A stretch of 64,000 bases of DNA from a virus. Its lineage: Duplodnaviria > Heunggongvirae > Uroviricota > Caudoviricetes. The notes under the pieces are model-generated. The model did not search any database, was not told where the DNA came from, and saw only the letters and a list, made by a program, of their open reading frames with translations. A program made the position numbers and the translations under genes. Below are positions 4,831 through 34,172 of the stretch, piece after piece; position 1 is the first letter of the stretch; every line of letters begins with the position of its first letter. The DNA lies in IMG/VR virus record IMGVR_UViG_3300032007_000057, positions 1-64,000 of that record; one strand, 5' to 3'.

Positions 4831-5184
4831 ATGACAATTGTTAATCTCACCCCTCACGAAATCAACATCAAAACTAGTAACGGCATGATTAGTATTCCAC
4901 CATCTAATCTGCCTCCTGTAAGATTGGTGGAAAAAACTGAAACAAGAAAAACTATCGAAACATCTGAAGGAGAAATTACTGTTAGTGCCAAATACTTTGG
5001 GGAAGTAAAGAATCTTCCTTCTTCAGAAGAAGGCAAAGTGTTTGTTGTATCAGCAATCGCAGGAACTGCAATATGGGAGCTTCTTCCAGAAAGAAGAAAA
5101 GATGTATTCATTACTGGAGAAGCAATCAGAGATAGCGCTGGGAAGCACATTGGATGTAACGGCCTTTGCTGCTATCCTAAATAA
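4831..5184 (+). CDS. Hypothetical protein (117 aa), plus-strand insert in the minus block
   Basis: SD AAAGGAG 8 nt before the ATG. Followed directly by a perfect terminator hairpin. Confidence 0.55.
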   Translation: MTIVNLTPHEINIKTSNGMISIPPSNLPPVRLVEKTETRKTIETSEGEITVSAKYFGEVKNLPSSEEGKVFVVSAIAGTAIWELLPERRKDVFITGEAIRDSAGKHIGCNGLCCYPK

Positions 5185-5218
5185 AACTAGGGGACTATTG
5201 ATAGTCCCCTAGTTTTAT
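5185..5218. terminator. Rho-independent terminator (bidirectional)
   Basis: aactaGGGGACTAttgaTAGTCCCCtagtt perfect stem, flanked by an A-tract and a T-tract. Confidence 0.7.
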
Positions 5219-5224
5219 TAACAT

Positions 5225-5530
5225 ATTTTTATATGTATATTATATTAGCGCTGTTTCAGTTTTAGGGGCAGCGTATTACGGTAAACTCAAGCCGTAAAGT
5301 TGAGTAAGGTGAAAGTCTCTCTTACCTAAAGCAGAGAGTCTAGGTCCAACGTAACACGTAACTCAGGGACCGAAAGCACTAGCTGCAAGTGTGCCTACCA
5401 GCATGGGCAAAGCAGCGTTGGAAAGATATTCACAGCACCCTAAGGGCGACTTTCCAAACTATTTAATCTTAGGGGTCCAGACTGAAAGGAGGAAAGGGTG
5501 TAGTCTGGATTATTCACCAAGGAGGTGAAA
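5225..5530 (+). ncRNA. GC-rich structured non-coding segment (candidate ncRNA or cis-regulatory leader) upstream of a GC-rich small ORF
   Basis: About 300 nt without ORF. GC far above the local average. Several short stem-loops visible (ctcaa..ttgag, ggtcc..ggacc, tccagact..agtctgga). Ends in a strong SD GGAGGTG. Confidence 0.3.
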
Positions 5531-5532
5531 GA

Positions 5533-5754
5533 ATGAACGAAGTGAAGTTTATCGTCATCGCGGTCATCGACCGTGAAGACGAAAGCTTCTACTGGGACGT
5601 TCGCACATCCAACCCCGCCGAAGCGGAGCTGGAGGTGCGCGTCGTTCTCGCTCAGAAGCCCAGCAGAAAATTGCAGGGCCGATGGATCGAGGACGAAACC
5701 GGTCGCGTCCTTCTGTGGTTCAATCCCAAGAGCCACAGATGGGAGCGCTGGTAG
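5533..5754 (+). CDS. Hypothetical small protein (73 aa) encoded by an anomalously GC-rich ORF (about 57% GC)
   Basis: Strong SD (AAGGAGGTGAAAGA) before the ATG. Composition unlike the rest of the phage. Weak hairpin plus T-tract follows. Confidence 0.5.
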   Translation: MNEVKFIVIAVIDREDESFYWDVRTSNPAEAELEVRVVLAQKPSRKLQGRWIEDETGRVLLWFNPKSHRWERW

Positions 5755-5816
5755 CGTCTCCGTAGAGGCGAAAAGAGACCCTGACTGGAAGGGGTTTCTT
5801 TTTGCTTACTCTTGAA

Positions 5817-6260
5817 TTAGTTTTGAACAGTAATCTGTATTGATGGCAAATACTCATTACTCCATTCATCAGTAATCAAAACATTTCCACCATTATTTAG
5901 TTTTGCATACATATTCAATATAAATACAGACTTATCTTGGATAAATGTACAAGGTAAATTATCCCGATTATTCAATTGAGCTTTAATAAGATTTGCAATT
6001 TGACTTTTAATATCTTCATAAACATTGATGTGGCTTTCTTCAGAATAAACGTTTAAATGAGTATCGTCCAGCACATTTATCATAAGTCTGCAATACATAG
6101 TATTTAAATCGATACTAAACTCAGTACAGATTTTTTCTGCAATCCACGGAACCACATCATATAAATTATTTGATTCAACAACATATTCATCACTTTTCCA
6201 GCGGCTAATTTCAATACTTTTATACCCACAATACCTAGTAACTGTTGCAGTAATTTTCAT
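5817..6260 (-). CDS. Hypothetical protein (147 aa)
   Basis: ORF in minus block. Confidence 0.5.
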   Translation of the reverse strand: MKITATVTRYCGYKSIEISRWKSDEYVVESNNLYDVVPWIAEKICTEFSIDLNTMYCRLMINVLDDTHLNVYSEESHINVYEDIKSQIANLIKAQLNNRDNLPCTFIQDKSVFILNMYAKLNNGGNVLITDEWSNEYLPSIQITVQN

Positions 6261-8517: not shown

Positions 8518-9201
8518 TTAATTATTGTCTTCAGAAGGAGCTTCTTCAGTTCCATTGTCTTCATCAATTTCAATATCAGCAGCTTCAAGATCATTCCAAT
8601 CCTGAGCATCAAGATACTGAGAAATATCACTGTCGGGGTCAGTTGGATCATAACCCATATTCACCGCATAAACAATTTCATTATTGATAGTCATCTTCTC
8701 TGTAGCTACTGAGAAACCTTCATTAAGTCTGCTAAGAATTCCAGTTCTAAAATCATTCATCATCATACTAATGTCTGAGAAGATTTCTCCAATAAATCTA
8801 GCCCTAACTCTATAATACTTAGCAAGAAGTTTTGCTTTAGCTACTTCTTTACCAAACTCTTCATTCCAAGTATCATTAGTTTCTGGATTACACTTTGCTA
8901 CTGCAAAAAACTTATCTGGAAACTCTTCAAGGAGTTTCTTATCGATAAGGTCAGCAACAAAATTACAATCACCATTCCTATGAACTGCTGTGCAATTATA
9001 AACAAAATTAACAAAATCACGATTGCAATTTGTCATAAATGCACACACTACACCTTTGTCCTTATTAATACGATACTCAATCATAGTTTCTGCTCCTTCT
9101 TTGTCTGTTATTTTTGCCCTTATTAGGGTCTGCTCGTTTTGACGTATTCTTGTGATAACCCTTATCCTTTTTCTTTTTGGTGTAATCCCAAGAATCCTCA
9201 T
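8518..9201 (-). CDS. Hypothetical protein with acidic C-terminal tail (227 aa)
   Basis: ORF. Confidence 0.5.
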   Translation of the reverse strand: MRILGITPKRKRIRVITRIRQNEQTLIRAKITDKEGAETMIEYRINKDKGVVCAFMTNCNRDFVNFVYNCTAVHRNGDCNFVADLIDKKLLEEFPDKFFAVAKCNPETNDTWNEEFGKEVAKAKLLAKYYRVRARFIGEIFSDISMMMNDFRTGILSRLNEGFSVATEKMTINNEIVYAVNMGYDPTDPDSDISQYLDAQDWNDLEAADIEIDEDNGTEEAPSEDNN

Positions 9202-9274
9202 CCAGCTTAAACTTCTTAAGTTCTTTTCCCATACCTAATTGAATCTACTTCGCTCCTTTTTATAAGATTATTTA

Positions 9275-10270
9275 CTACCAACCTATATCATTAGGATCAT
9301 CAACTTTAATCCCAAAGATATCACAAAAATTAGAAATACGATCATCAACTGCAAATTCTTGCATTTTATTATAATTAATTCTAAACTTAGTTAAATCTAA
9401 TGTACCATTAGTAGGAATAGTAATACAATCTAACTTACCTTCTTTACCCATTGTACCAGATCGAACTAAATCTGTCAAGCGTCTTTGTGTATCTGAATCA
9501 AATTGACCTATATCAATTTCTTCCAAGTCAAATCTATAGCCTCTATCCATTACTCTAAAGGTACTTCCATAAATTGCATTATATACCAACATAGATTTAA
9601 CTGATCTTGGCAGTCTATCTTGGGCATAGTTTTCTTTATTCCAAGAACTTGGAATAGCACAATAAACTGTACCTGTTTTTAACTGCTCAACATATCTACC
9701 TCTATAATCATCAATCTTAGTGGTAAGCTCTTCTTTACTGATTCCTTTCTTAAGGATATGCTCAATAAAATCATTTAACATATCTCTGCTAAATTGAGGA
9801 TAATCAGATCTTACAACTTCTATACCACTAATACTGATTTTATCCAAAGGCTTTCCTTCTTTGGAAACTAACCAAATAGCATACTTCTTTTTGATTTCCA
9901 GAAACAAAGCTCTTCTAATAACAAGTTCCTGTTTAAAATTAAAGTTAAACTTTTTAGCCGAAGATTCTGTAGGAGATGTATTATGCATATTAAGAAGTTC
10001 ATGAATCATTACATTATTAATATACTGTGCTACAGATTCATTCAATTCAATAACTTTATCTATCTTTTCCTTGTCAGAAATTTCATCATAATCTTTTCCA
10101 TAAATTGCTTTCAATGCATCGCCATATTTAGTAAAAATTGAATCTGTATTATGAACTAATATGTCATTTGCAAAAAAACAATGATCATCATCTGGCATTT
10201 CAATATCATATACATCAATAGGTTCTTCTGGAGTAATCACTTCTATTGATTTAACACTCTCTATCTTCAT
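9275..10270 (-). CDS. DNA polymerase B C-terminal fragment, preceded by a split-intein C-half (IntC, about 41 aa)
   Basis: Starts MKIESVKS...VYDIEMPDDDHCFFANDILVHN|TDSIF. That is intein blocks F/G ending in HN, then the +1 Thr, which is the TDS half of pol motif C (YGD|TDS). A KKKYA (KKRY) motif lies further downstream. Confidence 0.8.
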   Translation of the reverse strand: MKIESVKSIEVITPEEPIDVYDIEMPDDDHCFFANDILVHNTDSIFTKYGDALKAIYGKDYDEISDKEKIDKVIELNESVAQYINNVMIHELLNMHNTSPTESSAKKFNFNFKQELVIRRALFLEIKKKYAIWLVSKEGKPLDKISISGIEVVRSDYPQFSRDMLNDFIEHILKKGISKEELTTKIDDYRGRYVEQLKTGTVYCAIPSSWNKENYAQDRLPRSVKSMLVYNAIYGSTFRVMDRGYRFDLEEIDIGQFDSDTQRRLTDLVRSGTMGKEGKLDCITIPTNGTLDLTKFRINYNKMQEFAVDDRISNFCDIFGIKVDDPNDIGW

Positions 10271-27384: not shown

Positions 27385-27747
27385 TCATATAACAGCTATA
27401 ATTTCATCATTAGTTTGTTTTACAGCTGTAATAAATAAAATCATAGATGTTGTTTTCATTGTGCTATACATCAATGTAATACTAAATGACTTATTAATAG
27501 AGTCCTCATATAGAAGCTGTTTAAATACATCTGAAATTACTGTATTATAAAACATATCATTCTTAAACATCCCATTATCTACTGCATTACAAATAGATTT
27601 TAGATTTTTCAATTTAGTCCTAATATATCTAGTCTTATAAATAGCATTTCTATTACTAAACTCAGATATTGTTATGTTAATAGAATACATTACTATATAA
27701 CCTCTATCATTATATTTGGAACATCTCCTACAATCATATACTCCCAC
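27385..27747 (-). CDS. Hypothetical protein (120 aa)
   Basis: ORF. The 27693..27878 ORF overlaps it and may be a separate small gene. Confidence 0.4.
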   Translation of the reverse strand: MGVYDCRRCSKYNDRGYIVMYSINITISEFSNRNAIYKTRYIRTKLKNLKSICNAVDNGMFKNDMFYNTVISDVFKQLLYEDSINKSFSITLMYSTMKTTSMILFITAVKQTNDEIIAVI

Positions 27748-30617: not shown

Positions 30618-31454
30618 TTATGTTACTGTAAATGTTTTTGAAATATCGTATTGTTCGTTCTGCCACCACGCATCCATTCCTACTCGAAAGTCTATACGGA
30701 CTGTATGTTCACCAACATCACTTACAGAGGCAGGGTCTGGAGCTGTCCAACTTCCAGAAGCAGTTAAACTATTATAAGTCTGAGAATATACCCGATTTTC
30801 ATCATAGTATAAAGTTATAGAATTAAGTTGATATCTAGTTTGTTGAACTGTATACGGAACAAAATCCCATTCAACATATGCACTTTCACCAACCGATATA
30901 TTATTAACCCTTAACACCATACCCTTGTATCTGCCTTCACCTTCTCTATACGAAATATCAACGGTCCTTACGTTATCATTGTTGTCTTCTCTAACATAGG
31001 TGTTAAACAAATCTATTATACGATTATAACAGCTATCTGCCGGTCTACTTGATAAATAAATACTATAAAATGAATCTTCACCATAATCATAATAGGTTAA
31101 AGTTTCTCCGTCATAATTAAATGTTTGATCGATATATGGAAAATAAATAGAAAAAGAGCCTAAATGGGCTATGTCAGGATCAGAGCAATATGCTCTTAGT
31201 TCAAACCATCCCATATCGGGAGGAGTATTATAATAAGGATCGTCTCCATTGCCATATGTACCGTAAGCTGACGCAGCTGGTTTACCAATTAAACGATCAT
31301 TTATAACTAAAACAATTTTAAATTTTTCAGATTTATTTTTAATAACAAACCCAACACTAATAGTCGAATCATAAGTTTGTGCTTCCGCAAAGGTCATTCT
31401 GTATATCTTATACTCATCTTTCCCCCCATTCAACAAAAGAGGTTTTGTAAACAT
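30618..31454 (-). CDS. Hypothetical protein (278 aa), possibly structural
   Basis: ORF. Tyr/Asn/Asp-rich beta-like composition. Confidence 0.45.
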   Translation of the reverse strand: MFTKPLLLNGGKDEYKIYRMTFAEAQTYDSTISVGFVIKNKSEKFKIVLVINDRLIGKPAASAYGTYGNGDDPYYNTPPDMGWFELRAYCSDPDIAHLGSFSIYFPYIDQTFNYDGETLTYYDYGEDSFYSIYLSSRPADSCYNRIIDLFNTYVREDNNDNVRTVDISYREGEGRYKGMVLRVNNISVGESAYVEWDFVPYTVQQTRYQLNSITLYYDENRVYSQTYNSLTASGSWTAPDPASVSDVGEHTVRIDFRVGMDAWWQNEQYDISKTFTVT

Positions 31455-31523
31455 TGATAAACACTCCTTTTATAAGTTTTATATTTGTAAGAACTAGGTA
31501 AACTAGTTTAAAAGTCAAAGGTA

Positions 31524-31599
31524 TGGTGGACTCGCTGGGGTATGATCCCAGAACCTGGCGATTATAAGTCGCCTACTCTACCAATTGAGCTACAAGTCC
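31524..31599 (-). tRNA. tRNA with anticodon read as UAU (Ile2-like). Anticodon assignment tentative.
   Basis: Minus strand: GGACTTG acceptor, GGCGA-CTTATAA-TCGCC anticodon arm, GGTTCTGGGATC T-arm, CGAGTCC-A-CCA. Confidence 0.65.
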
Positions 31600-31608
31600 A
31601 TGTAATAA

Positions 31609-31695
31609 TGGTGCCCAGGGGGGGACTCGAACCCCCACGCCAGAGATGGCAAGGGATTTTAAGTCCCTTGTGTCTACCTATTCCACCACCTGGGC
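31609..31695 (-). tRNA. tRNA-Leu (anticodon UAA), type II with long variable arm
   Basis: Minus strand: GCCCAGG acceptor, AGGGA-CTTAAAA-TCCCT, long extra arm, GGGGGTTCGAGTCCCCC, CCTGGGC-A-CCA. Confidence 0.75.
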
Positions 31696-31717
31696 ATTTA
31701 ACTATTTTTATATTTTA

Positions 31718-31794
31718 TGGAGCCCCTAGGAAAAGAGTTGAACTTCCATCACTTCTTTACAAGAGAAGTATAATAGCCGTTATACTATAGGGGC
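31718..31794 (-). tRNA. tRNA-Thr (anticodon UGU)
   Basis: Minus strand: GCCCCTA acceptor, CTTCT-CTTGTAA-AGAAG, GGAAGTTCAACTCTTTTCC, TAGGGGC-T-CCA. Confidence 0.7.
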
Positions 31795-31963
31795 AAATAA
31801 ATCTTATTTGTAGTCTACATCACTCAAAAGATTTAGGAAAGTTCTATACTATATTTTACTTCTGATTAACAGAGAGTGCTCCATCCTTAGCTATAGTATA
31901 GATAGATGGTTAAAAGGTGTAGATCTTTCAATAACTACTTACTGAAGACCTTTATCCAGGAAA

Positions 31964-31992
31964 ATTATATCAGCAGTATAGTTATTTGTCAA
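31964..31992 (-). promoter_or_regulatory. Perfect consensus sigma70 promoter (TTGACA-17-TATAAT) driving the tRNA cluster
   Basis: Minus strand: TTGACAaataactatactgctgaTATAAT, about 170 nt upstream of tRNA-Thr. Confidence 0.6.
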
Positions 31993-32544
31993 GTACAAAA
32001 CTGACTCACTTATTTATATGATCTACATGACCCTAAGAATAGGTCATTTGTGTAGTACTTTCGATGACTTTAATGGGCGTAATATATGTACTACAATCCT
32101 TTTCCCCTTTCAATCAAAGGATGACAGTTTCTTACCACTTGCAGTAACCTGACAACTCTCCGGAATCCTCCACTCAACACTGCTCTAGCTTCTACTAAAG
32201 GTGGCTCAACATTAAGTTTCATAGGATAACTACTACCTCAAGTGTAGTAGGTTCTAACAGTTTTTATAAAGTCTATCCCTTAGCCAAGGTAATTTTTATT
32301 GAGGGTTACATTCCCTAATAGACTTCTATCCTACTTATGCCAAATGAAGACATTACAATCTTCTAAGTAGATCAGCCTTTATTTACTGTTATTTCCCAAG
32401 CACTGATTTGGGTGAAAGGATTTTAATTGTAACTCATTTTAGGTTACAATTTAATTTTTAATGGCTCCTCCTGGTGGTTACGCTCCACCGTATACGGTTT
32501 AACAGACCGCCACTCTACTATTGAGTTAAGGAGGAATTAGAACT

Positions 32545-32639
32545 GGCTCTGGAGCCCCGATTCGAACGAGGATGAGAAAGGAGGTCCCTTTACTTACTGA
32601 TCCAAAGTCAGCTGTTTTTCCAATTAAACTACTCCAGAG
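32545..32639 (-). ncRNA. Atypical tRNA-like element. 8-bp acceptor stem, long variable arm, anticodon loop CTTTGGA (UUG).
   Basis: Minus strand: CTCTGGAG...GTTT-AATTGGAA-AAAC...GCTGA-CTTTGGA-TCAGT...AAAGG-GACCT-CCTTT...CCTCGTTCGAATCGGGG...CTCCAGAG-CC. Canonical T-loop GTTCGAATC. Non-standard combination of features. Confidence 0.3.
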
Positions 32640-32782
32640 TTAAATTATCAAGGGTTCACTTAAGACTCGCACTTAAGATCTTCAGCTTTCACATTTTCCT
32701 AATTATGCTCTAGAAGCATACATAGAAAACACTACTCAGTGAGATTTTGCTATTTAAACTATGAACCATGTCCAACAAAGAT

Positions 32783-32811
32783 ATTAAAGCATACTGACAA
32801 GAATTTGTCAA
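32783..32811 (-). promoter_or_regulatory. Sigma70-like promoter (TTGACA-17-TTTAAT) inside the ORF-free region, pointing at the tRNA-like element
   Basis: Minus-strand TTGACA, 17 nt, TTTAAT. Confidence 0.45.
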
Positions 32812-33503
32812 GAGGTGATTTTAAAAATTTTATGGCAGGTCCACTACCGCTTGCAGATAGTTCTGAAGTTTTGGAGACTCCTGTTTTACTACATAAACTA
32901 TGGACCCATCAATATTTGTTCAAAAAATTTTAGGTGTGGAGAGAAGTAATGAGGTACTCCTCCCCACTTCAAAGGAGAACGATCATGAGCGGAAAAATAT
33001 ATAGATACTTGATAGCTGTGAGGTATGTTCAGACTCAGACTCTGTTTAAATAGTACAGACCTTTATTCACAGATTTACATAATAATTACCAGCTACTTAC
33101 TATTAGCGAACGAGTTTACGTTATATTAAAGCTAATGTGATTTCACTAAGTAAATCTTAAGTGAGGTTCGACCAAGCCTCTTCATAGGGTCTAACTACTA
33201 AATCAACAATACTAACTACTCCCTACTCAGTAAAGTCTTACTCAATCCAAGATAAAATAGTCATCAATCAAAGACTATTATTTGAAATTAGATGTAAGGC
33301 TTTCTAGTCTCAGGAAAATTGAGAGAAAAGCATTGTTATTATATCGTCACATTTCAGGTGTGAAAATATAATTAGATAACTTTGCGGTCATCTAAATATT
33401 AGGAGAGTATCTTTCTTATTTTTACATGAATAAGATACTCAGAAAATCATGAAACAGAGTATTTAGAACTTTCACCAAGTATCAAATCTTTAAGTACTAA
33501 AAC

Positions 33504-34172
33504 TTAGTACTCAATTTCAATAGTGGTAGTTGCGTTAGAAACCTGAAGTGCTGAATCAACATTGAGTTCAAACTGATCAATCTCAATACTAAGAGCGTTA
33601 ATCTTCTTATTAATATCAATAGGATCAATAAGAACTGGCTGATTCTCCATATTGTACTTTTTCTTAAAGGCCATGATAGCATCTGTATTGATATTGGTTT
33701 TATCCTTATTACCATACAGGGTCTCAATGGTTTTTTCAAGTCTCTGTTCAGCTTTTTTAGTATCCTCTTCAAGCTGACTCTGTGCAAACTGAAGCTGAGT
33801 CTGAAGAGTATTAAGAAGCATTTTCTTAGTCTTAAGCCCATACTTCATCTGATAAATTGCTTCAGCAACAGTCATTTCCTTACCACCAACATTAATGATG
33901 GTTTCAGCATTAGACTTACTGATAGCAGCTTTAATAGCATCAACTCTTCTAATCAGATCAGTAACTGCCTGATAATTACTGCTTACCTTAGAACTAAAAT
34001 CCTGAATTGACATTCCATCAATTCTAAAATTATCATTAGTAGGATTATTATTTACAGCCACATACCTATTGCTAAAACTAGTGTACTGCATAATTTTCTT
34101 ATCTGCAAGTTTGACCTCACAAAGCGCCTTATGAATAGTCATCTTCTCAGTAGTCATTGCTTCAACCTCCAA
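33504..34172 (-). CDS. Hypothetical coiled-coil protein (222 aa)
   Basis: ORF. The 33497..33841 ORF is an alternative frame. Confidence 0.5.
   Translation of the reverse strand: MEVEAMTTEKMTIHKALCEVKLADKKIMQYTSFSNRYVAVNNNPTNDNFRIDGMSIQDFSSKVSSNYQAVTDLIRRVDAIKAAISKSNAETIINVGGKEMTVAEAIYQMKYGLKTKKMLLNTLQTQLQFAQSQLEEDTKKAEQRLEKTIETLYGNKDKTNINTDAIMAFKKKYNMENQPVLIDPIDINKKINALSIEIDQFELNVDSALQVSNATTTIEIEY

Follow-up and report, generated by a model that had tools for sequence, protein, structure and literature searches.

The stretch at positions 31795-33503 of the IMG/VR virus record IMGVR_UViG_3300032007_000057 (Caudoviricetes), of which positions 1 to 64,000 were analysed and are called the window here, is a non-coding island of transfer RNA (tRNA) genes and small RNAs that belongs to a group of large phages. 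It lies between a tRNA cluster (31524-31794) and gene 33504-34172. In total, the island has six tRNA genes and at least two structured RNAs that are not tRNAs, here called elements A and B. Every element of it is on the minus strand, downstream of the conserved tail-fibre-like gene 33504-34172 (phrog_1491, annotated "tail fiber protein"). New here are a drum-like RNA in a new setting, which forms the 3' part of element B, and a glutamine tRNA with a class-II-type extra arm. A preliminary description of this DNA had proposed a large structured RNA and an aberrant tRNA-like gene for the stretch; its observations are partly confirmed, and its interpretation is partly supported.

As that description held, there is no open reading frame (ORF) above 65 amino acids in the stretch. 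The longest one in the standard code has 64 on either strand, and stop-free runs reach at most 76 codons. When any single stop codon (TGA, TAG or TAA) is taken as sense, no stop-free run exceeds 145 codons, and those of greatest length are antisense to tRNA genes. None of the three recodings opens a protein gene, and a hidden one is ruled out. The region is also less AT-biased than its surroundings, as had been claimed, albeit modestly, with a guanine-plus-cytosine (GC) fraction of 0.347-0.373 over 31001-33000 against ~0.28-0.33 in most coding kilobases.

For comparison, the phrog_1491 gene, which has 584 homologues, was used to fetch syntenic loci, and this gave five further lineages and a near-identical strain. 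Scanning IMG/VR and JGI metagenomes with exact patterns contributed just L018 and L019, and the second flanking protein gave no loci when used as the query. The relatives come from bovine and other gut-type metagenomes, and the closest long relative of the phage is a 275-kb IMG/VR contig. The loci are as follows, with the identity of the neighbouring protein to that of the window:
L003, 78%
L012 (= L018), 74%
L005/L006, 73%
L008-L010, 71%
L011, 56%
L001 (from the 275-kb IMG/VR contig), 54%
L019, 97% identity to the window at the DNA level (protein not compared)

In every locus with enough downstream flank, the phrog_1491 gene is followed by 1-2.5 kb without called genes, and these gene-free stretches contain conserved blocks that are collinear with the window. 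In distant relatives, where the protein is 45% identical, arrays of up to ~20 tRNAs are found at the same place, in one case together with a transfer-messenger RNA (tmRNA). It is because of the gene-free, collinear conserved blocks and the tRNA arrays of the distant relatives that the region is read as a tRNA and small-RNA island of this phage group.

The larger of the non-tRNA RNAs is element B, which consists of two domains:
32122-32412, minus strand: element B, a structured RNA of ~300 nucleotides (nt) after the tRNA-Asn gene
32252-32412, minus strand: 5' domain of element B, ~190 nt, with hairpins H1 and H2 and a three-way branch (helices 2-7)
32125-32251, minus strand: 3' domain of element B, with hairpin H8 (32229-32251) and a drum-like three-helix module (32125-32227)

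This conserved RNA is what stands of the large structured RNA that had been proposed beside the tRNAs; there is no single RNA of 1.7 kb. Element B is found in five relative lineages, and it aligns at 70-76% with L008, L011 and L012 and partly with L005 and L001. From six sequences RNAalifold predicts 78 pairs, 24 of them compensatory. For the structure that was counted, the last RNAalifold hairpin was replaced by the P3 helix of drum, which gives 74 pairs. Here, 94.6% of the alignment cells are paired, compared to 36-47% when the partners are slid by 1-3 columns, and double-sided changes are seen in 26 of the 74 pairs, compared to 1-5 when slid. Not one of 500 shuffles reached the observed values. 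Helices 2-6 of the 5' domain carry compensatory changes. The long-range closing helix and one small hairpin are not claimed, because they are without covariation. The 5' domain is specific to this phage group, and an nhmmer search with it gave nothing related, either in the bacterial loci that bear drum or in loci of distant phages. Judged from the alignments, the covariation supports element B as a probable conserved, structured non-coding RNA adjoining phage tRNA genes.

The 3' end of element B gives the only non-tRNA Rfam signal in the region. Positions 32120-32227 match drum (RF02958) over the full length of the model with 31.2 bits (E 0.0021), and matches at the syntenic spot in L019 (33.3 bits), L010 (29.8 bits) and L005 (36.4 bits) extend this to four lineages including the window (E 0.0015-0.019). 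The drum helices P1 and P2 coincide with helices that RNAalifold found independently, and P1, P2 and P3 (helices 9, 10 and 11) have 3, 4 and 2 double-change pairs, respectively; in P3, CAG/CUG is replaced by GGG/CCC in L005. The module has the junction strands UGAA and GGA and the GGGUUGU linker of the drum architecture, with the junction letters conserved in all six sequences. The window has one copy of the module, and so does each relative in which it is present; the distant relatives with a 45% identical protein have no drum-like module.

The match was also looked at from the opposite direction. Genuine drum RNAs were gathered from bacterial genomes by a consensus pattern (genome loci L025-L142); about half of 120 loci were genuine, and the chance matches were used as controls. 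A model built from the six phage copies only (R1) has, with default filters, a single hit in 743 kb, and this is a genuine drum site (23.6 bits, E 0.036), to which the whole model aligns, upstream hairpin included. When the filters are switched off, R1 places its best hit at the drum site in each of 6 genuine loci (9.5-22 bits) and at the pattern site in none of the 6 controls. The phage module thus shares with drum the order of helices (P2 lies within P1, with P3 after them), the junction strands (5' UGAA and 3' GGA, with a G(N)GUUGU linker), a P3 loop containing UUAC..CAAG..GAAA, and a hairpin immediately upstream in both the bacterial and the phage families. It differs in that the loop of its P3 is shorter and lacks an internal hairpin, in that there is neither a 3' terminator nor an adjacent PBECR4 gene, and in that it is fused to the ~190-nt 5' structured domain inside a phage tRNA operon. 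The matches run over the full model length in four lineages, yet reach only 29.8-36.4 bits. We conclude that the 3' ~105 nt of element B are probably a diverged drum relative or a close structural analogue, falling short of the Rfam bar for membership.

Drum RNAs are described as being followed by Rho-independent terminators and as associated with one protein family, which is not named in the main text (Weinberg et al. 2017, PMC5737381). Since 2017, no study of the function of drum has followed, as far as a full-text search shows. In 18 of the 33 genuine drum loci, an ORF of 92-242 amino acids begins shortly downstream on the same strand, and this family is Pfam PBECR4 (PF18813, 1.3e-35). In the reverse search, which started from the protein (viral loci L143-L153), 9 PBECR4 loci on viral contigs had upstream flank, and 7 of them showed the drum pattern, 93-161 nt before the gene. 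Wherever a genuine pair was seen, in bacteria and prophages, drum lay next to PBECR4, 50-125 nt upstream of it on the same strand. PBECR domains are predicted metal-independent endoribonucleases of phage and mobile-element conflict systems (PMC5512222). The literature search found no paper stating the pairing of drum with PBECR4, and PADLOC has no model for the drum-associated protein. This gives a testable partner, a predicted ribonuclease (RNase) encoded downstream, for a widespread and highly structured bacterial RNA that has long been an orphan. The abiF-motif RNA is a different RNA. In most Clostridia-type copies, a conserved hairpin (GAUAGC...GCUAUC) precedes the drum.

With an RNA gene, a U-run and a nuclease gene on the same strand, the drum-PBECR4 arrangement may be likened to a type III toxin-antitoxin or abortive-infection module, with which it shares the gene layout (for the layout of ToxIN and AbiF, see PMC12373285). 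Type III antitoxins consist of tandem repeats of 34-50 nt, whereas drum is a single structured unit of ~110 nt. PBECR4 itself was searched for in six-frame translations of the window and of L001-L022, and none was found (best E 0.19).

The second main result concerns the tRNA genes. About one fifth of the stretch is made up of ordinary or near-ordinary tRNA genes that had been overlooked, and the tRNA genes of the whole island are:
31524-31794, minus strand: tRNA-Thr(UGU), tRNA-Leu(UAA) and tRNA-Ile(UAU), found by ARAGORN and Rfam, downstream of a perfect promoter
32465-32535, minus strand: tRNA-Asn(GUU), Rfam 53.1 bits, found by ARAGORN only at a relaxed threshold
32544-32638, minus strand: tRNA-Gln(UUG), 95 nt, called Gln(ttg) by ARAGORN, Rfam tRNA 52.4 bits
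32836-32907, minus strand: tRNA-Trp(CCA), Rfam tRNA 39 bits, in E-value mode only

The tRNA-like gene that had been pointed out at 32545-32639 on the minus strand is a real tRNA by both programs, with the T-loop UUCGAAU and a long extra arm. The 8-base-pair (bp) acceptor stem ascribed to it was a misreading: the stem has the normal 7 bp, together with a 5-bp T stem, and an eighth pair appears only if base -1 pairs with the discriminator. The first pair is U1-A72, the discriminator is G73, and the CCA end is encoded after it. The anticodon loop is CUUUGGA, and the D arm is normal, with GG. The extra arm is 21 nt long (32574-32594) and has a 5-bp stem. With a cloverleaf scoring above the tRNA threshold, the anticodon UUG, CCA and U1-A72, the gene has what a tRNA-Gln should have, apart from the short (4-5 nt) variable loop of class I, which is lacking in the window and in L011. 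The gene is indeed non-standard, in that a glutamine anticodon and U1-A72 are combined with a class-II-type extra arm, and the combination recurs in L011, where the long-arm gene is 88.8% identical.

In L019, L001, L005, L008 and L012, tRNA-Gln is 75-79 nt long and has the same anticodon loop as in the window, and U1-A72 is present in the window gene as well as in 6 of 6 tRNA-Gln genes of sister phages. U1-A72 and the anticodon are glutamine identity marks, U1-A72 being an identity element for bacterial GlnRS and GatCAB. Because U1-A72 and the anticodon loop are common to the sister tRNA-Gln genes of normal length, the 95-nt tRNA looks, from its sequence, like a tRNA-Gln that gained an arm and not like a tRNA-Ser with a changed anticodon. 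In L019 there is a short tRNA-Gln followed by an HNH endonuclease gene at the position where the window has the long tRNA-Gln and tRNA-Asn, a difference which implies that the long and short forms have been swapped as cassettes.

Long extra arms belong to class II tRNAs, that is, tRNA-Leu, tRNA-Ser and tRNA-Tyr. The tRNA-Gln of the window is like them in having an extra arm with a 5-bp stem. In carrying an anticodon that is foreign to the Leu/Ser/Tyr class, it is also like the allo-tRNAs reportedly described by Mukai et al. in 2017, which have an 8/4 or 9/3 geometry as opposed to the canonical 7/5 seen here. The 7/5 stems rule out an 8-bp acceptor stem, an allo-tRNA and the 8/4, 9/3 or 8/5 geometry of a tRNA-Sec-like molecule. 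To our knowledge no natural glutamine tRNA with a class II extra arm has been described, nor did a targeted search of the literature bring one to light. It is possibly a new type of tRNA, seen in two phage lineages whose close sisters keep the normal form, and it could show how phages tune tRNA identity or resistance to nucleases.

It had been noted that tRNAs flank the region. They do, and it also contains tRNA-Asn(GUU) and tRNA-Trp(CCA), which had been overlooked. All six island genes encode the CCA end. The T-loops of tRNA-Asn (AGCGUAA), tRNA-Trp (UGCAAGC) and tRNA-Ile at 31524-31599 (AUCAUAC) are without the usual UUC, and the D-loops of tRNA-Asn and tRNA-Trp have no GG. It is because of these non-canonical T- and D-loops that ARAGORN at default settings missed tRNA-Asn and tRNA-Trp. 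L001 has tRNA-Asn at the same place as the window, and the acceptor stem of tRNA-Trp covaries with its homologue in L008. With ARAGORN, one of the checks that the preliminary description had asked for, the 95-nt Gln(ttg) was found directly, tRNA-Asn appeared only at the relaxed threshold, and a tRNA-Pyl was miscalled. Default tRNA finders thus missed two of six island tRNAs and invented one tRNA-Pyl, and for this reason "empty" stretches of phage genomes deserve checks with covariance models and comparative data. Further low-threshold ARAGORN calls, namely Leu(gag), Thr(ggt), Ile(aat) and an intron-containing Tyr, were rejected, as their stems are mismatched and the calls do not recur in the relatives.

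The invented tRNA-Pyl brings in the other non-tRNA RNA of the island:
32653-32767, minus strand: element A, a conserved tRNA-shaped RNA of 115 nt

It consists of an acceptor stem, a 4-bp D-like arm, a rod of ~65 nt with a conserved internal loop that replaces the anticodon arm, and a 6-bp T-like arm with the loop UGCGAGU. The acceptor and T stems stack to 12 bp, the length found in tRNA, and no CCA is encoded. Between the window and L001 the element is 82% identical, compared to ~68% for flanking coding DNA and 54% for the neighbouring protein. Of its 31 pairs, 5 are compensatory. The acceptor stem is wholly replaced between the two, from GGUUCAU/GUGAACC in the window to AAUCUG/CGGAUU in L001, with the pairing kept. 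Element A has no match in Rfam, the tRNA model included. The ARAGORN tRNA-Pyl(cta) at 32652-32745 is a miscall of it: the acceptor pairs at 4 of 7 positions, there is no Rfam tRNA match, and the supposed anticodon loop, which may be closed down to a triloop, differs between the window (UUCUAGA) and L001 (UCCAUGG). Stable non-tRNA RNAs are known from phage tRNA clusters, namely species 1 and 2 of T4, rnaC and rnaD, and element A (~115 nt) resembles them in lying within such a cluster. YrlA, the tRNA-like module of bacterial Y RNAs, shows no sequence or covariance-model similarity to element A (its 20.5-bit match is elsewhere), and it ends in a long stem while element A ends in an acceptor stem.

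Two promoters lie in this region. The one at 31964-31992 on the minus strand has a perfect sigma70 consensus (TTGACA-17-TATAAT, 12 of 12, with an upstream TG) and is conserved in five relative lineages. Both had been taken for consensus promoters firing into the stretch. This one is as described in sequence, and yet it fires outward, to tRNA-Thr, tRNA-Leu and tRNA-Ile and not into most of the region; the other, at 32783-32811 on the minus strand, is only near-consensus (TTGACA-17-TTTAAT, read from the sequence) and would start transcription ~8-10 nt before element A. It was not listed by the promoter scan because the second position of its -10 hexamer is T. The perfect promoter lies inside a further conserved block, which follows element B after a short segment:
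31916-32045, minus strand: element D, with a hairpin at 32029-32045, an inverted repeat bracketing the perfect promoter, and a conserved leader
32050-32121, minus strand: indel segment of ~72-76 nt, absent from L019 (blastn join at 2509/2510 there versus 32123/32046 in the window)

The element D block is 86-89% identical to L008 and L011. The inverted repeat GTAGATC/GATCTAC brackets 31964-31992, a second stem takes in the -10 region, and both covary. The stems are compatible with an RNA structure in a read-through transcript as well as with a DNA operator.

Taken together, the explanation that we tentatively prefer is that of a tRNA and small-RNA island with an orphan drum-like RNA acting as a decoy against a PBECR4 RNase. 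Elements A and B would be co-transcribed with the island tRNAs, and tRNA-processing enzymes cutting on either side would release the non-tRNA RNAs. These enzymes measure the minihelix of 12 bp formed by the acceptor and T stems, and they could release element A because its stack has the length found in tRNA. We have moderate confidence in this part. The orphan drum-like RNA would then be an antitoxin mimic that binds and silences a PBECR4 RNase encoded by the host or a prophage during infection. This is proposed because drum is paired with PBECR4 in a type III-like layout while the phage copy is an orphan, and such a copy in a large phage of lytic type points to a role in an arms race. Phage PhiTE reportedly carries a pseudo-ToxI, a mimic of the ToxIN antitoxin; like PhiTE, this phage carries the RNA alone, and its copy is only distantly similar to the bacterial RNA. 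The unusual tRNAs, with the extra-arm tRNA-Gln and the altered elbow loops, may belong to the same arms race by supplying translation with molecules that such RNases recognise poorly. Our confidence in the decoy role and in this link is low. A wider version appears unlikely: that drum and PBECR4 are an unrecognised type III-like abortive-infection module, common in gut Clostridia and prophages, whose RNA half was captured and remodelled as an anti-defence decoy in a phage tRNA operon, beside tRNAs rebuilt to escape nucleases (by an extra arm, altered elbow loops and a tRNA-shaped decoy).

A number of results weigh against the preferred explanation. The folding energy of element B is no better than that of shuffled sequences (z = -0.63), and its covariation comes from five independent lineages only. 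All phage matches to drum are below the Rfam gathering score of 43 bits, L011 and L012 have no Rfam drum match, and the reciprocal R1 scores are weak (9.5-23.6 bits). A minus-strand scan of 31400-33700 found no terminator-like site after the phage module, which is followed by a hairpin without a U-run, although a terminator is typical of drum. There is also no adjacent PBECR4 in the 64-kb window or in ~190 kb of relatives' loci. The search in the phage itself covered 64 kb of a genome of perhaps ~275 kb. The 275-kb relative contig is not among the PBECR4 hits in IMG/VR, from a scan with short exact peptide patterns and of limited sensitivity. Finally, the neutralisation of PBECR4 by drum RNA, the toxicity of PBECR4 and its presence in the host are all putative.

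The strongest competitor, which we regard as possible though somewhat unlikely, is that elements A and B are phage-specific RNAs of the operon, either scaffolds or spacers for processing or structures for read-through and attenuation, and that the likeness to drum is convergent or too remote to matter. Both elements lie between tRNA genes and promoters, and the stem of element D that takes in the -10 region makes sense only in a read-through transcript or as an operator at the DNA level. The sub-threshold drum scores, the missing terminator and PBECR4, and a 5' domain without relatives outside the phage group all fit this as well. However, it is rare for processing spacers to retain ~70 covarying pairs between lineages with 54-78% identity in the neighbouring protein, and the three helices and junction strands of drum recur and are found reciprocally. 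In addition, L001 keeps the tRNAs and element D while most of element B is absent, so that element B is not needed for processing of the operon.

It is less likely still, and in our view rather improbable, that the drum-like RNA is the partner of a nuclease of the phage itself that is encoded outside the 64-kb window, for example a PBECR-type domain in a polyvalent protein of the virion. Phage and prophage proteins, among them injected polyvalent ones, are where PBECR domains were defined (PMC5512222), pairs of drum and PBECR4 are present on viral contigs, and the window is part of the genome only. In genuine cases the two are, however, always adjacent, at 50-125 nt, and here the neighbours are tRNAs. 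The lack of a PBECR4 signal in the 64 kb and in the ~190 kb of relatives' loci, and the absence of the 275-kb relative contig from the IMG/VR hits of the limited-sensitivity scan, also argue against a partner of this kind.

That the stretch is mere debris, made up of decaying tRNA genes and scars of homing endonucleases and introns (which are plainly active here) with no functional RNA besides tRNAs, is very improbable. Homing-type genes at varying positions in the relatives, one group I intron, and a 97% identical relative set apart from the window by swapped cassettes and an indel of 76 nt are what such decay would leave behind, and ARAGORN at low threshold sees poor tRNA-like shapes in some of the blocks. 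Those shapes are mismatched and are not seen again in the relatives, however, and element A and the promoter block are 82-89% conserved, compared to ~68% for the flanking coding DNA. Compensatory changes keep ~26 pairs in element B and 5 in element A, which largely refutes debris as an explanation. A giant ornate RNA of the GOLLD or ROOL class filling the 1.7 kb, for which the preliminary description had seen a plausible home here, can be dismissed as next to impossible: the context fits, with a phage, adjacent tRNAs and a slightly raised GC fraction, and both RNAs are described near tRNAs and in phages or prophages (PMC5737381), but GOLLD, ROOL, HEARO, raiA, tmRNA and group I and II introns have no match within 31400-33700, neither at the gathering score nor at E ≤ 10 with relaxed filters (the group I intron and tmRNA found in relatives being the positive control), element B is two to three times smaller, and what the stretch contains is a set of separate tRNAs, promoters and shorter RNAs.

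The homing-type endonuclease genes (HNH, HNH_3, and PD-(D/E)XK with helix-turn-helix) occupy varying island positions among the relatives, and the window has none:
L019, 1257-2171
L011, 5362-6282 and 8001-8894
L005/L008, ~9128-10123
L001, 8536-9456

L019, with 97% identity, differs from the window by the cassette swaps and the 72-76-nt indel. In L005, tRNA-Leu(UAA) at 8644-9030 carries a group I intron within its anticodon loop (8677-8920, Rfam 86.9 bits; 3' exon near 8985-9030), and it is followed by a promoter and a free-standing HNH_3 endonuclease gene. Unlike this gene, the tRNA-Leu(UAA) of the window is intronless. The homologue of tRNA-Trp in the sister phage of L008 (7241-7338) and L010 (1280-1377) has the anticodon loop CUCUAAA and so the anticodon CUA, that of an amber suppressor. 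Classical CUA suppressors derived from tRNA-Trp insert glutamine. This hints at read-through or recoding of TAG in that sister phage. In L021, matches to the tRNA model at 4931-5054 and 5967-6117 are 124 and 151 nt long, far above the length of a tRNA, and suggest further tRNAs with large insertions.

HEARO (IscB-type omega) RNA matches were found in L003 (4816-5041, 134.8 bits) and in L020 (2136-2403, 71.2 bits), where the match adjoins an RRXRR/HNH gene pair. Sub-threshold matches to RAGATH-27 (cut-off 76.1 bits) in L021 (8664-8752, 47.9 bits) and L010 (712-793, 28 bits) sit directly after the tail-fibre-like gene, and there is none at the equivalent place in the window (33430-33503). In distant relatives, genes of RNA-repair type lie close to the conserved tail-fibre-like gene and the tRNA arrays, namely Thg1 and RlaP, a T4 Rnl2-like RNA ligase, and Tpt1:
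L016, 45-1878
L020, 825-2027
L021, 1423-1950

They fit a theme of tRNA damage and are no proof for this window. In the window itself, a protein of 120 amino acids (27385-27747) has a weak match to the cyclic phosphodiesterase domain of tRNA ligase (16.9 bits, below the cut-off of 23).

Three further features lie between tRNA-Trp and the tail-fibre-like gene:
32922-32967, minus strand: terminator-like GC-rich hairpin of 8 bp with a U-run, read from the sequence, just upstream of tRNA-Trp
33144-33248, minus strand: block C2, with GGATTGAKTA, ~40 nt, AGTAGTTAG, a GAGC/GCTC-type stem and TCGAACCTCACTTAAG
33249-33278, minus strand: terminator-like hairpin ATAGTC...GACTAT followed by UUUUAUCUU, from the sequence and the minimum-free-energy fold

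Neither hairpin was listed by the terminator scan. The one at 33249-33278 is downstream of the tail-fibre-like gene 33504-34172, and relatives have a different hairpin there. Nine loci carry the motifs of block C2 without variation; in combination they are seen once in the window, where chance would give 0. One of its stems covaries by eye. As a structured RNA the block was rejected, since RNAalifold gives no consensus fold, and as a phage promoter motif it was rejected because the 64 kb contain it a single time.

The window looks like part of a large uncultured phage. Its genes are laid out in two divergent blocks and include a family-B DNA polymerase, a helicase and SbcD-like genes. The DNA polymerase is at most 31% identical to that of any isolate relative, the phages of INPHARED have nothing in common with the window beyond ordinary tRNA similarity, and Pfam gave nothing usable for ten neighbouring proteins. 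Elsewhere in the window, at 5240-5800, a GC-rich island lies between hairpins, with a GC fraction of 0.43 over 5001-6000 compared to ~0.30 around it. It contains a plus-strand ORF of 73 codons (5534-5755) behind a strong AAGGAGG site and opposite to the flanking genes, preceded by ~280 nt of GC-rich non-coding sequence. This island has no Rfam match and looks foreign.

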